Assembly: GCF_058153355.1 (NCBI RefSeq) | Contig: NZ_CM177019.1 | Length of the DNA stretch: 64,000 nucleotides | Reading direction: 5' to 3' (one strand) | In this document: piece after piece, positions 3,005 to 44,810 of the stretch | Layout of the letters: each line of letters begins with the position of its first letter | Numbering within the stretch: position 1 is the first letter of the stretch | The notes under the pieces: generated by a model | Seen by the model: only the letters and a program-made list of their open reading frames with translations | The model's database searches: none | What the model was told of the DNA's origin: nothing | Program-made: the position numbers and the translations under genes

Positions 3005-3577
3005 TTACGCCGGTTTTTGCTGCTTTTTTATCGCTTGCGGCAGGTCTGCCAGGCTATTTAACACCCAATCCGCCGCGTTTTCTGCTTCAGGCGTAATAGG
3101 TTTTCCCGTACGCACCAGCACTTTTGTTCCCACGTTCGCCGCAGCCGCTGCCTGCATATCTTCTAATTTATCGCCCACCATATAAGAAGCGGCCATATCA
3201 ATATGCAAATAATCGCGTGCCGACAAAAGCATCCCCGGATGTGGTTTGCGGCAGTCGCAGACCTGGCGAAACTCTTCAACACTACCCTGCGGATGATGCG
3301 GGCAATAATAGATGCCATCCAGATCGACATCGCGGTCCGCCAGCGACCAGTCCATCCACTCGGTCAGCGTTTCAAACTGTGCTTCAGTAAATTTACCGCG
3401 AGCAATGCCAGACTGGTTGGTTACTACCACCAGCGCAAAGCCCATTTTTTTTAGCTCGCGCATGGCGTCAATAACACCGTCGATAAATTCAAAGTTGTCG
3501 ATCTCATGGACATAGCCGTGATCGACATTAATGGTGCCATCACGGTCAAGAAAAATTGCGGGTACGCTCTTCGCCAC
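3005..3577 (-). CDS. gmhB: D-glycero-beta-D-manno-heptose-1,7-bisphosphate 7-phosphatase
   Basis: 190-aa ORF starting [38 protein letters not shown]-family DxDGT motif; recognised as GmhB (YaeD). Confidence 0.93.
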
Positions 3578-3666
3578 CTTTTATAGCTCCTTAATAAGGC
3601 ATGTGACGCTAGTATCGCATGTTTCGACCTGCAAGAAAGTGCTCTTCGCATAAACCTGATTGATTT

Positions 3667-3690
3667 AGACGTCTGGATGCCTTAACATCC
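3667..3690 (+). promoter_or_regulatory. MetJ operator (three tandem 8-bp met boxes) in metNIQ promoter
   Basis: AGACGTCT GGATGCCT TAACATCC, tandem matches to met-box consensus AGACGTCT, about 75-100 bp upstream of metN start. Confidence 0.75.
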
Positions 3691-3764
3691 ATTTCATTGA
3701 CGGCTTTGACCGTTTCAGGCATTCGAAATGCCACGACTAACTTAATGACGATAATAAATAATCA

Positions 3765-4796
3765 ATGATAAAACTTTCGAATATCACCAAAGTGTTCCAC
3801 CAGGGCACCCGCACCATCCAGGCGTTGAACAACGTCAGCCTGCATGTGCCAGCTGGACAAATTTATGGCGTTATCGGTGCCTCAGGCGCGGGTAAAAGTA
3901 CGCTTATCCGTTGTGTAAACCTGCTGGAGCGCCCAACCGAGGGTAGCGTGCTGGTCGATGGTCAGGAACTGACCACGCTGTCAGAATCCGAGTTGACCAA
4001 AGCTCGCCGCCAGATTGGTATGATTTTCCAGCATTTTAACCTGCTCTCTTCGCGCACTGTTTTTGGCAACGTGGCACTGCCGCTGGAGCTGGACAACACG
4101 CCGAAAGACGAGATTAAACGTCGCGTGACAGAATTACTGTCATTGGTTGGTCTTGGCGATAAGCATGATAGTTACCCGTCTAACCTTTCCGGTGGGCAGA
4201 AACAACGTGTGGCGATTGCCCGTGCGTTAGCCAGCAATCCCAAAGTATTGCTGTGTGATGAGGCCACCAGCGCACTGGACCCGGCAACAACACGTTCTAT
4301 TCTCGAACTGCTGAAAGACATCAATCGTCGTCTGGGTTTGACGATTCTGTTGATCACCCACGAAATGGACGTTGTGAAGCGCATTTGTGATTGCGTGGCG
4401 GTGATCAGTAATGGCGAGTTGATCGAGCAGGACACGGTAAGTGAAGTGTTCTCGCATCCGAAAACGCCGCTGGCGCAGAAGTTTATTCAGTCGACCCTGC
4501 ATCTGGATATCCCGGAAGACTATCAGGAACGTCTGCAAGCGGAACCATTCGCTGACTGCGTGCCGATGCTGCGCCTGGAGTTTACCGGTCAATCGGTCGA
4601 TGCCCCGCTGCTTTCTGAAACCGCGCGTCGTTTCAACGTCAATAACAACATTATTAGCGCGCAGATGGATTACGCCGGTGGCGTTAAGTTCGGCATTATG
4701 CTGACTGAAATGCACGGCACACAACAAGATACGCAAGCCGCCATTGCCTGGCTGCAGGAACACCATGTAAAAGTAGAGGTACTGGGTTATGTCTGA
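3765..4796 (+). CDS. metN: methionine ABC transporter ATP-binding protein
   Basis: 343-aa ORF with Walker [13 protein letters not shown] signature LSGGQKQR and C-terminal regulatory domain; first gene of metNIQ. Confidence 0.95.
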
Positions 4797-5442
4797 GCCG
4801 ATGATGTGGCTGCTGGTTCGTGGCGTATGGGAAACGCTGGCAATGACCTTCGTATCCGGTTTTTTTGGTTTTGTAATTGGCCTGCCGGTTGGCGTCCTGC
4901 TTTATGTCACGCGTCCGGGGCAAATTATTGCTAACGCGAAGCTGTATCGTACCGTTTCTGCGATTGTGAACATTTTCCGATCCATCCCGTTCATTATCTT
5001 GCTGGTATGGATGATTCCGTTTACTCGCGTTATTGTCGGTACATCGATTGGTTTGCAGGCAGCGATTGTTCCGCTGACCGTTGGTGCAGCACCGTTTATT
5101 GCCCGTATGGTCGAGAACGCTCTGCTGGAGATCCCAACCGGGTTAATTGAAGCTTCCCGCGCAATGGGTGCTACGCCGATGCAGATCGTGCGCAAAGTGC
5201 TCTTACCGGAGGCGTTGCCAGGTCTGGTGAATGCAGCAACTATCACCCTGATTACTCTGGTCGGTTATTCCGCAATGGGTGGCGCAGTCGGTGCCGGTGG
5301 TTTAGGTCAGATTGGCTATCAGTATGGCTACATCGGCTACAACGCGACGGTGATGAATACGGTACTGGTATTGCTGGTCATTCTGGTTTATTTAATTCAG
5401 TTCGCAGGCGACCGCATCGTCCGGGCTGTCACTCGCAAGTAA
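4789..5442 (+). CDS. metI: methionine ABC transporter permease
   Basis: 217-aa hydrophobic ORF overlapping metN stop by 8 bp; recognised as MetI. Confidence 0.95.
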
Positions 5443-5481: not shown

Positions 5482-6297
5482 ATGGCGTTCAAATTCAAAA
5501 CCTTTGCGGCAGTGGGAGCCCTGATTGGATCACTGGCACTGGTAGGCTGCGGTCAGGATGAAAAAGATCCAAACCACATTAAAGTCGGCGTGATTGTTGG
5601 TGCCGAACAGCAGGTTGCAGAAGTCGCTCAGAAAGTCGCGAAAGACAAATACGGCCTGGACGTTGAACTGGTTACCTTCAACGACTATGTTCTGCCAAAC
5701 GAAGCATTGAGCAAAGGCGATATCGACGCCAACGCCTTCCAGCATAAACCGTACCTTGATCAGCAACTGAAAGATCGTGGCTACAAACTGGTCGCAGTAG
5801 GCAACACGTTTGTGTATCCGATTGCCGGTTACTCCAAGAAAATCAAATCGCTGGATGAACTGCAGGATGGTTCGCAGGTTGCCGTGCCAAACGACCCGAC
5901 TAACCTTGGTCGTTCACTGCTGCTGCTGCAAAAAGTGGGCTTGATCAAACTGAAAGATGGCGTTGGCCTGTTGCCAACAGTTCTTGATGTTGTTGAGAAC
6001 CCAAAAAACCTGAAAATTGTTGAGCTGGAAGCACCGCAGCTGCCGCGCTCTCTGGACGATGCGCAAATCGCTCTGGCGGTTATCAACACCACCTATGCCA
6101 GCCAGATTGGCCTGACTCCGGCGAAAGACGGTATCTTTGTCGAAGATAAAGAGTCCCCGTACGTAAACCTGATCGTGACGCGTGAAGATAACAAAGACGC
6201 AGAGAATGTGAAGAAATTCGTCCAGGCTTATCAGTCTGACGAAGTTTACGAAGCAGCGAACAAAGTGTTTAACGGTGGCGCTGTTAAAGGCTGGTAA
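5482..6297 (+). CDS. metQ: methionine ABC transporter substrate-binding lipoprotein
   Basis: 271-aa ORF with lipoprotein signal (LALVGC); recognised as MetQ. Confidence 0.95.
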   Translation: MAFKFKTFAAVGALIGSLALVGCGQDEKDPNHIKVGVIVGAEQQVAEVAQKVAKDKYGLDVELVTFNDYVLPNEALSKGDIDANAFQHKPYLDQQLKDRGYKLVAVGNTFVYPIAGYSKKIKSLDELQDGSQVAVPNDPTNLGRSLLLLQKVGLIKLKDGVGLLPTVLDVVENPKNLKIVELEAPQLPRSLDDAQIALAVINTTYASQIGLTPAKDGIFVEDKESPYVNLIVTREDNKDAENVKKFVQAYQSDEVYEAANKVFNGGAVKGW

Positions 6298-6334
6298 TTT
6301 TTAGGCTGTTTCCACAATTTGTAATATCATTCAG

Positions 6335-6364
6335 GACGGGCGCTTGCCCGTCTTGTCATTTTTA
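6335..6364 (+). terminator. Rho-independent terminator after metQ
   Basis: Hairpin GACGGGCG-cttg-CCCGTC followed by T-rich run TTGTCATTTTT. Confidence 0.6.
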
Positions 6365-6819: not shown

Positions 6820-7523
6820 GCAGTTTTCAGTTCGAGCAAATAGGCGTTATTCGCTCGCCCTATAAAGAAAAATTCGCCGTTCCGCGCCAGCCAGGTCTGG
6901 TAAAAAGCGCCAACGGCGAACTGCATCTCATTGCTCCCTACAACCAGGCCGACGCCGTACGCGGCCTGGAAGCGTTCAGCCATTTATGGATACTTTTCGT
7001 CTTTCATCAAACGATGGAAGGCGGCTGGCGCCCAACTGTGCGTCCGCCTCGTCTTGGTGGTAATGCCAGAATGGGTGTTTTCGCTACGCGCTCCACTTTC
7101 CGCCCTAACCCGATTGGTATGTCGCTGGTAGAGCTGAAAGAGGTTGTTTGCCATAAAGACAGCGTGATTCTGAAGCTCGGCAGTCTGGATCTGGTCGATG
7201 GTACGCCGGTGGTAGATATCAAACCGTATCTTCCCTTTGCCGAATCGCTTCCTGATGCCAGTGCCAGCTATGCGCAAAGTGCACCAGCGGCAGAGATGGC
7301 GGTGAGTTTTACCTTAGAGGTCGAAAAGCAGCTTTTGACATTGGAGAAGCGCTATCCGCAGTTAACGCTGTTTATCCGCGAAGTACTGGCGCAGGACCCG
7401 CGTCCAGCCTATCGTAAAGGTGAGGAAACGGGCAAAACCTATGCCGTCTGGCTGCATAATTTTAACGTTCGCTGGCGCGTCACCGACGCTGGTTTTGAAG
7501 TCTTTGCGCTGGAACCGCGTTAA
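6816..7523 (+). CDS. trmO: tRNA (adenine37-N6)-methyltransferase TrmO (formerly YaeB/TsaA)
   Basis: 235-aa ORF overlapping rcsF stop (ATGA); recognised as YaeB/TrmO. Confidence 0.9.
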   Translation: MSSFQFEQIGVIRSPYKEKFAVPRQPGLVKSANGELHLIAPYNQADAVRGLEAFSHLWILFVFHQTMEGGWRPTVRPPRLGGNARMGVFATRSTFRPNPIGMSLVELKEVVCHKDSVILKLGSLDLVDGTPVVDIKPYLPFAESLPDASASYAQSAPAAEMAVSFTLEVEKQLLTLEKRYPQLTLFIREVLAQDPRPAYRKGEETGKTYAVWLHNFNVRWRVTDAGFEVFALEPR

Positions 7524-35507: not shown

Positions 35508-35764
35508 TCTAAAATCCTCGGAGATGTGATCTGCCCGGCGTTAAACCGCACAGATATAAAAGTGAAAAAGGGGGCCATATGCAGGCCCCCTAACCAAACG
35601 TGTACTACCTGGTCTATAAGGGCTCTCCCCCTTCATATTTCGCGCCGCAGATGCGTTGTCTTCGCTCGCTCATCCCGGTCACTTACTGATGTAAGCTCCC
35701 GGGAATTCTCGAGCTTGCCGCCTTTCTGCAACTCGAACTAATTTGGGGGAGTTATCAAGCCTTA

Positions 35765-36712
<948 letters not shown>

Positions 36713-43340: not shown

Positions 43341-44765
43341 TTACTGCATTAACAGATAGATGGTGCTGTCGCCGCGCTGAATATTCAGTGCCAGCACAGA
43401 CGGTTTGCTGTCGAGAACTTTACGCAGTTCAGCGATGTTTTTCACTGCCTGCTGGTTCGCACCAATAATCACATCACCTTTCTTCAGGCCGATCTGCGCA
43501 GCCGGAGTGCCCGTTTTCACGTTGTTCACCACCACGCCCTGATCTTTGCCTTTGTTGCTCATCTCAGCGCCTTCAATGCCGTTGAAGATGGTGCTGGAAT
43601 CAACCTGATTCTGGCTGCTCTGCTGCAGTTCCAGGTTCACGTTAACCTGCTTCCCGTCGCGCAGTAAGCCCAGGGTCAGTTTGCTGCCTACCGGCATAGT
43701 GCCCACCTGAGCACGCAGTGCGGCAAAGCTGCTGATTGGCTTACCGTTCAGTGAGGTGATCACATCACCCGCTTTAATGCCCGCTTTCGCGGCGGAAGAG
43801 TTCGGCAGAACCTGGCTTACGAAAGCACCGCGCTGGGCGTCAACTTTCATCGCTTTCGCCAGATCGGAGTTCAGCTCAGTCCCCATAATACCCAGCTCAC
43901 CGCGTTTCACCTGGCCGTATTCCACCATCTGCGAGGTCAGGTTTTTCACCATGTTGCTCGGGATAGCAAAACCGATACCGATGTTTCCGCCGTCCGGTGC
44001 GAGGATCGCGGTGTTGATACCAATCAGTTCGCCGTTCAGGTTAACCAGCGCGCCACCAGAGTTACCCCGGTTGATCGCTGCATCGGTCTGGATGAAGTTT
44101 TCGTAGTTTTCAGCGTTCAGGCCGCTACGTCCCAGCGCAGAGACAATCCCGGAAGTTACTGTCTCGCCCAGGCCGAACGGGTTACCAATTGCTACGGTGT
44201 AATCACCCACGCGCAGTGCATCAGAATCCGCCATCTTAATTGCGGTCAGGTTTTTCGGATTCTGGATCTGGATCAGCGCGATATCAGAGCGCGGATCTTT
44301 GCCAACCATCTTCGCGTCGAACTTACGACCATCGCTCAGCTGGACTTTAATCACCGTCGCGTTATCAACAACGTGGTTGTTGGTGACGACATAGCCTTTA
44401 TCGGCATCAATGATGACGCCGGAACCCAGCGCCATGAATTTTTGTTGCTGGCCGCCGCCATTACCGCCCTGGCCCCCCTGGCAGAACGGAGAGCTCTGGA
44501 ACGGAGAACCTTCCTGGCAGAACGGAGAATCATCACCGAAGAACTGCTGGAAATTACGCGGCATACGCGGCGTATTAACGGTTGTGCTACCTTCTACGTT
44601 AATGCTGACCACTGAAGGCATCACCTTTTCGAGCATTGGTGCAAGGCTTGGTATCTGCTGGGCTGTCGTTGCTGAAGAAGTCTCAGCCGCCGTTGCAGAG
44701 AGCGGAGATAACGCCAAACCTAAACTCAGAGCCAGTGCACTCAGTGCTAATGTGGTTTTTTTCAT
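43341..44765 (-). CDS. degP: periplasmic serine endoprotease/chaperone DegP (HtrA)
   Basis: 474-aa ORF with signal peptide, trypsin-like protease domain (GNSGGAL) and two PDZ domains; recognised as DegP. Confidence 0.96.
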   Translation of the reverse strand: MKKTTLALSALALSLGLALSPLSATAAETSSATTAQQIPSLAPMLEKVMPSVVSINVEGSTTVNTPRMPRNFQQFFGDDSPFCQEGSPFQSSPFCQGGQGGNGGGQQQKFMALGSGVIIDADKGYVVTNNHVVDNATVIKVQLSDGRKFDAKMVGKDPRSDIALIQIQNPKNLTAIKMADSDALRVGDYTVAIGNPFGLGETVTSGIVSALGRSGLNAENYENFIQTDAAINRGNSGGALVNLNGELIGINTAILAPDGGNIGIGFAIPSNMVKNLTSQMVEYGQVKRGELGIMGTELNSDLAKAMKVDAQRGAFVSQVLPNSSAAKAGIKAGDVITSLNGKPISSFAALRAQVGTMPVGSKLTLGLLRDGKQVNVNLELQQSSQNQVDSSTIFNGIEGAEMSNKGKDQGVVVNNVKTGTPAAQIGLKKGDVIIGANQQAVKNIAELRKVLDSKPSVLALNIQRGDSTIYLLMQ

Positions 44766-44810
44766 GTATTTCAGTCTCGATTAACAGATAACGCAAAATT
44801 GCTGTGTTCT

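Follow-up and report, generated by a model that had tools for sequence, protein, structure and literature searches.

A conserved array of three met boxes upstream of Escherichia coli metNIQ matches the known MetJ operator and overlaps the probable core promoter

Genes and other features at the metNIQ locus

The stretch of DNA that was analysed, referred to below as the window, is 64,000 nt long (contig NZ_CM177019.1 of assembly GCF_058153355.1) and harbours the genes of a methionine ABC importer close to its beginning. A sequence-only reading of this DNA had assigned them to a metNIQ operon, and indeed the downstream ORFs match the MetN, MetI and MetQ families. The genes and features needed for orientation are:

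3577-3005, minus strand: gmhB, the divergent upstream neighbour of metN
3765-4796, plus strand: metN, ATP-binding subunit of the methionine ABC importer (NCBIfam TIGR02314, full length, 702 bits, E = 1e-211)
4789-5442, plus strand: metI, permease subunit (NF008049, E = 2e-136)
5482-6297, plus strand: metQ, substrate-binding lipoprotein (NF008285, E = 8e-172)
6332-6355, plus strand: terminator-like hairpin after metQ, a 10-bp stem, 7 pairs of which are G-C, with a T-rich tail downstream

The end of metN and the start of metI overlap by 8 nt. The genes rcsF and trmO come after metQ, and the hairpin at 6332-6355 is the probable end of the metNIQ operon.

Matches to RNA genes elsewhere in the window were obtained with Rfam and ARAGORN. 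An rrnH-like operon occupies positions 1-2638 on the minus strand and comprises the 5' part of the 23S rRNA (1-660), StyR-44 (668-766), tRNA-Ala (834-909), tRNA-Ile (952-1028) and the 16S rRNA (1097-2638); the rRNA and tRNA genes are arranged as in the rrnH region of K-12. The matches also include CssrA sRNA, t44 RNA and the HtrA 5'-UTR thermometer (35570-35679, 36518-36604 and 44760-44805, all on the minus strand).

Three tandem octamers resemble the met-box consensus

Around the array upstream of metN the window reads ...cctgaTTGATTtAGACGTCTGGATGCCTTAACATCCatttcattg... on direct inspection. Positions 3667-3690 contain three contiguous in-phase octamers, each of which resembles AGACGTCT, and this agrees to the base with the three tandem octamers that had been claimed beforehand. 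The octamers were scored with the MetJ half-box information matrix of Augustus & Spicer 2011 (PMC3228920, Table 3 and Methods). According to the rule of the same study, no box of a site may score below 3.15 bits, one quarter of the value for the consensus, and the boxes together must reach at least the full consensus score of 12.58 bits. The boxes are:

3667-3674, no strand assigned: met box 1, AGACGTCT, 8/8 positions of the consensus, 12.58 bits; a perfect, palindromic consensus box
3675-3682, no strand assigned: met box 2, GGATGCCT, 5/8 positions, 4.22 bits, above the single-box threshold of 3.15 bits
3683-3690, no strand assigned: met box 3, TAACATCC, 4/8 positions, 3.63 bits, barely above the same threshold

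With a total of 20.43 bits (12.58 + 4.22 + 3.63) the array passes the rule. An additional in-phase box was ruled out on either side with the published matrix: the octamer at 3659-3666 (ATTGATTT) yields -9.9 bits and the octamer at 3691-3698 (ATTTCATT) yields -19.4 bits. Thus, the number of boxes is exactly three. The distance between the end of box 3 and the ATG of metN at 3765 is 74 nt. The designation of this array as textbook, made in the sequence-only reading, is appropriate for box 1 but not for the array as a whole, in which boxes 2 and 3 are weak.

Within the 64-kb window the rule is passed by the metN array alone, and the three-box sum of this array ranks first among 63,977 positions, the runner-up reaching 12.3. 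None of 300 dinucleotide-preserving shuffles attained 20.43 bits, the shuffle maximum being 19.76; per 64 kb of shuffled DNA, 0.64 sites passed the rule, a figure that fell to 0.05 when at least three boxes were demanded. A two-box consensus with at most three mismatches matched once in the window, at the metN array, compared to 0.05 expected matches. Among all other positions of the window no MetJ site passes the rule, and the best other two-box sum amounts to 11.3 bits at 7214, inside trmO. A poor matrix score relative to background, which had been named beforehand as the result that would speak against MetJ boxes, was therefore not what we observed.

The same operator is known from E. coli K-12

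The 24-mer of the window is identical to the operator agacgtctggatgccttaacatcc published for metN (b0199, formerly abc/metD) of E. coli K-12 MG1655, for which the catalogue entry reads 20.45 bits, 3 boxes, 6.82 and a gap of 74 (PMC3228920, Table S1). The recomputed score of 20.43 bits is thus to be compared with a published 20.45 at the same box number and gap. The whole 187-bp gmhB-metN intergenic region is identical to that of K-12 MG1655 save three leader SNPs, all of which lie outside the operator (3705, T for G; 3709, A for C; 3727, A for G).

For the K-12 operator, experimental data are available. With lacZ fused to the 400 bp preceding E. coli metN, comparison of the wild type with a delta-metJ strain yielded a repression ratio of 0.05, corresponding to about 20-fold repression by MetJ (PMC3228920). 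Since the operator in the window is identical to the tested one, the published repression data should carry over, and the proposed MetJ/SAM repression of metNIQ is in line with both the catalogued 24-mer and the reporter ratio. In addition, metNIQ was among the training operators of PMC3228920, that paper reports gel shifts on its cloned operators, and a second comparative study has placed metNIQ in the core MetJ regulon. The metN operator is real and strongly conserved, but ordinary and already known. The sequence-only reading was right in calling it expected rather than novel, as it has already been published.

Taking the score, the published data and the conservation described below together, we estimate the probability that the 24 bp at 3667-3690 represent the MetJ operator of the metNIQ operon at roughly 0.93.

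The architecture of the metN site is shared with other E. coli operators (metA, metBL/metJ, metC, metE/metR, metF, metK, mmuP and ybdH/mtnE), which also consist of tandem in-phase 8-bp boxes. The K-12 operators in the table of PMC3228920 contain 2 to 4 boxes, are located about 20-180 nt from the start codon and have totals of 15 to 31 bits, a range that includes metN. The metN site differs from the other K-12 sites listed in that it alone has a perfect AGACGTCT box; the two remaining boxes rank among the weakest. Further, the metN operator is not functionally shared with a divergent met gene, the neighbour being gmhB. A candidate extended -10 promoter of gmhB, TGcGATACT, is located at 3619-3611 on the minus strand and is kept as AGTATCGCATG in many of the genera in the alignment A2 (see below). 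The met boxes would be positioned at about -63 to -86 from the implied gmhB start (about 3604), i.e. upstream of the gmhB core promoter, and because of this location control of gmhB by MetJ appears unlikely.

Conservation of the site across genomes

We collected 120 metN loci from species-representative genomes using a back-translated MetN Walker-A peptide, a search which is blind to the upstream DNA, and in every locus checked the 300 nt preceding metN with the rule of PMC3228920. The outcome was as follows:

Enterobacterales: site in 66 of 67 loci, 51 with at least three boxes, gaps of 63-106
Aeromonadales: site in 11 of 11 loci
Vibrio: site in the single locus (1/1)
Pasteurellales: site in 10 of 22 loci, two-box sites only, gaps of 35-56
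Bacteroidota: site in 1 of 16 loci; the phylum is outside the reported range of MetJ

According to PMC3228920, the occurrence of MetJ is limited to five orders of the Gammaproteobacteria. Elsewhere in the Enterobacterales loci, the background was 0.002 rule-passing sites per 300 nt. By the rule, 15 of the 66 Enterobacterales sites are two-box sites. The identical 24-mer was found in many genera, including Citrobacter, Salmonella, Klebsiella, Enterobacter, Erwinia, Pantoea, Tatumella and Mixta. Comparison with other enterobacteria, which had been suggested as a check, hence revealed near-invariant conservation.

The sole Enterobacterales locus failing the rule belongs to Erwinia persicina (L055), where the site is AGACGTCT GGATGCCC TACCATCC. 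Boxes 2 and 3 of this site each carry one C substitution, which pushes both below the single-box threshold, so that the failure probably reflects the threshold rather than the loss of an operator.

In Aeromonadales, Vibrionales and Pasteurellales, met-box arrays are likewise located upstream of methionine transporter genes (metNIQ/metT operators). The regulatory logic is shared, but these operators differ from the metN array described here in sequence, box number and gap. Aeromonas has two separate arrays upstream of metN with gaps of about 102 and 126-134, whereas Enterobacterales have a single array; the two-array loci are L010, L023, L041, L042, L045, L050, L058, L063 and L087. In Pasteurellales, more than half of the sampled loci are without a site.

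Within the species, 5424 of 5426 complete E. coli genomes contain a match to the 187-bp intergenic region at an identity of at least 95%, and of the 5353 E. coli records that match the 49-nt core (3652-3700), 5207 are 100% identical to it. An identity of at least 99% over the 187 bp was obtained for 18 of the 5424 matching records, the best being strain 2013C-4282 with 100%. The gene metJ itself is absent from the 64-kb window and is found in 5425 of the 5426 complete E. coli genomes. Since the window is from E. coli, the presence of metJ in the source genome is near-certain.

A conserved island with the probable core promoter

The alignment of the 67 Enterobacterales metN upstream regions (alignment A2) contains an ungapped island at 3660-3690 with 94-98% identity to the window, in contrast to 54-60% in its flanks. 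The island is composed of TTGATT at 3660-3665, one base and the three boxes. From its layout we infer the following promoter elements:

3660-3665, plus strand: putative -35 hexamer TTGATT, 4/6 positions of TTGACA, 17 nt before TAACAT
3683-3688, plus strand: putative -10 hexamer TAACAT, 4/6 positions of TATAAT, with T1, A2 and T6 kept
3695-3697, plus strand: predicted transcription start of metNIQ (near 3696), 7-9 nt downstream of the putative -10 hexamer

Of the 67 sequences, 53 have TTGATT and 9 have TTGACT in the -35 column (95.5% identity); the -10 column reads TA[A/C/G]CAT in all 67, and there is no gap between the two columns. The combination of TTGATT, 17 nt and TAACAT resembles a sigma-70 promoter; it matches 8 of 12 consensus positions and was thus omitted by our promoter scan, which has a cut-off of 9/12. 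Listed by the scan is a 9/12 candidate with the composition ATGCCA-16-GATAAT at 3728-3755 on the plus strand, the start of which would fall downstream of the boxes. A further 9/12 match, TCGAAA-18-TATTAT at 3780-3751 on the minus strand, is next to the metN start codon; the region around this codon is A/T-rich and prone to chance promoter matches. A search of the accessible literature for an experimentally determined metN transcription start or a promoter description found none, the term PmetN being used in synthetic biology without mapping.

In the same 67 sequences, box 1 is AGACGTCT in 57. Most of the box-2 variants of other genera (AGACGCCT, AGATGCCT and AGACATCT) shift towards the met-box consensus and, judged from these variants, the substitution pattern of box 2 is a signature of selection for MetJ binding and not that of a promoter spacer. 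Box 3 is TAACATCC in 51 sequences with an invariant CATC, while in 16 of the 67 the third octamer is TACCATCC, TAGCATCC or TAGCATCT and scores below the single-box threshold. Box 3 overlaps the probable -10 hexamer and, therefore, its conservation is not attributable to MetJ alone.

This overlap raises the question of how many boxes are functional. We regard it as unlikely, although deserving serious consideration, that the operator is made up of two boxes only (3667-3682) and that the third octamer TAACATCC is kept as the -10 hexamer plus discriminator. Such an arrangement would be compatible with the score of box 3 close to the threshold, with its drop below the threshold in 16 of 67 Enterobacterales even though T1, A2 and T6 of the hexamer never vary, with the 15 two-box sites among 66, and with the minimum of two boxes for repression (PMC3228920, Methods). 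On the other hand, the invariant CATC reaches from the -10 hexamer into the discriminator and the next C is nearly invariant, which suits a met half-site better than the needs of a promoter. Moreover, weak met boxes beside strong ones are generally loaded by cooperative binding of MetJ, and this also speaks for a third functional box. Finally, three boxes are counted for metN in the published catalogue (PMC3228920).

Far less probable is that the island represents a core promoter only, that its likeness to met boxes is coincidental and that MetJ controls metNIQ indirectly. It is true that the island coincides exactly with the layout of a -35 hexamer, a 17-nt spacer and a -10 hexamer, and indirect effects of MetJ do exist, as metH is repressed through MetR (PMC3228920). 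However, promoter spacers are normally not conserved in sequence, and here the spacer is 94-98% conserved and contains a perfect met box and a 5/8 box. Chance is further opposed by the 300 shuffles, none of which equalled the matrix score, and by the recurrence of sites in front of metN, with other sequences and gaps, in Aeromonadales, Vibrio and Pasteurellales, Bacteroidota being nearly devoid of them. The delta-metJ reporter result also speaks against a coincidence.

The inverted repeat TGGATG-CCTTAA-CATCCA followed by TTTCATT (3674-3691), which is listed by a terminator scan on account of its 6-bp stem with 3 G-C pairs and its T-rich tail, was rejected as an intrinsic terminator or other RNA hairpin, a reading with hardly any credibility: the stem is short and weak, the repeat is upstream of the inferred metN start, where nothing needs terminating and the upstream plus strand is antisense to gmhB, and RNAalifold predicts no conserved hairpin at 3674-3691 for the 67 sequences. 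We explain the dyad as a by-product of two adjacent met boxes, since every junction between tandem consensus boxes is a centre of palindromic symmetry.

The metN leader

Downstream of the three-box operator, the following features can be delineated:

3691-3764, plus strand: interval between box 3 and the ATG, mostly 5' leader; 74 nt, equal to the published gap of b0199
3699-3714, plus strand: leader hairpin 1, GACGG-n6-CCGUU
3718-3733, plus strand: leader hairpin 2, GGCAUU-CGA-AAUGCC

In a search for known RNAs and riboswitches, no Rfam family matched the region 3400-3950 at E <= 1. The stability of the E. coli leader fold is no better than that of shuffles (z = -0.48), and RNAalifold predicted no consensus structure in the leader from the 67 Enterobacterales sequences. 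When the pairs of hairpin 1 were specified by hand, base changes on both sides were found at 5 of 5 pairs, with 70% of the cells paired in the 67 sequences. For both hairpins specified in this way, 61.5% of the cells pair, compared to 30-38% with slid partners. A motif GGCA...UGCC-ACGGCUAAC is conserved after the start-proximal hairpin.

Some further properties of the leader were noted. The three SNPs relative to K-12 (3705, 3709 and 3727) are all in the loops of the two hairpins. The motif UGCCACGGCUAAC after hairpin 2 is conserved at the sequence level in alignment A2, and most Enterobacterales keep ACGATAA about 13-19 nt before the metN ATG. A recognisable Shine-Dalgarno sequence is absent before the ATG at 3765 (region 3745-3767), which is preceded by the A/U-rich ATGACGATAATAAATAATCA.

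Only very tentatively, and as a rather improbable addition to the MetJ operator, we propose on the basis of these patterns that the leader may hold a second, post-transcriptional control element. If so, this could be a binding site for an sRNA or a protein, or an element influencing mRNA stability or translation.

Proposed mode of repression and its meaning

MetJ is a ribbon-helix-helix repressor, one dimer of which binds per 8-bp met box once it is loaded with the corepressor S-adenosylmethionine (SAM), and adjacent dimers bind cooperatively. At the metN operator, the perfect box 1 would nucleate MetJ binding, and cooperativity would then load the weak boxes 2 and 3, the occupancy of box 3 being presumed. 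Boxes 1 and 2 would fill the spacer between the putative -35 and -10 hexamers, box 3 would cover the latter, and the bound array would span about -29 to -6 from the predicted start near 3696. Because the array fills the spacer and covers the -10 hexamer, SAM-bound MetJ would exclude RNA polymerase, and steric occlusion is the likely mode of repression as judged from this geometry. Upon a fall of methionine and SAM, MetJ would leave the operator and the high-affinity methionine importer would be made. If the interpretation of the 24 bp as MetJ operator is true, a change of box 1 from AGACGTCT to AGTCGACT would relieve the repression by methionine.

MetJ control of metNIQ in E. coli was established in 2002 and entered the catalogue of 2011. 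The significance of the site beyond its correct annotation is small. What we add is that, across 67 Enterobacterales sequences, the operator and the probable core promoter share one 31-bp island without gaps and with 94-98% conservation, and that the probable -10 hexamer falls on the third box. For the cell, the site ties the transcription of the high-affinity L-/D-methionine importer to the cellular SAM level via MetJ.
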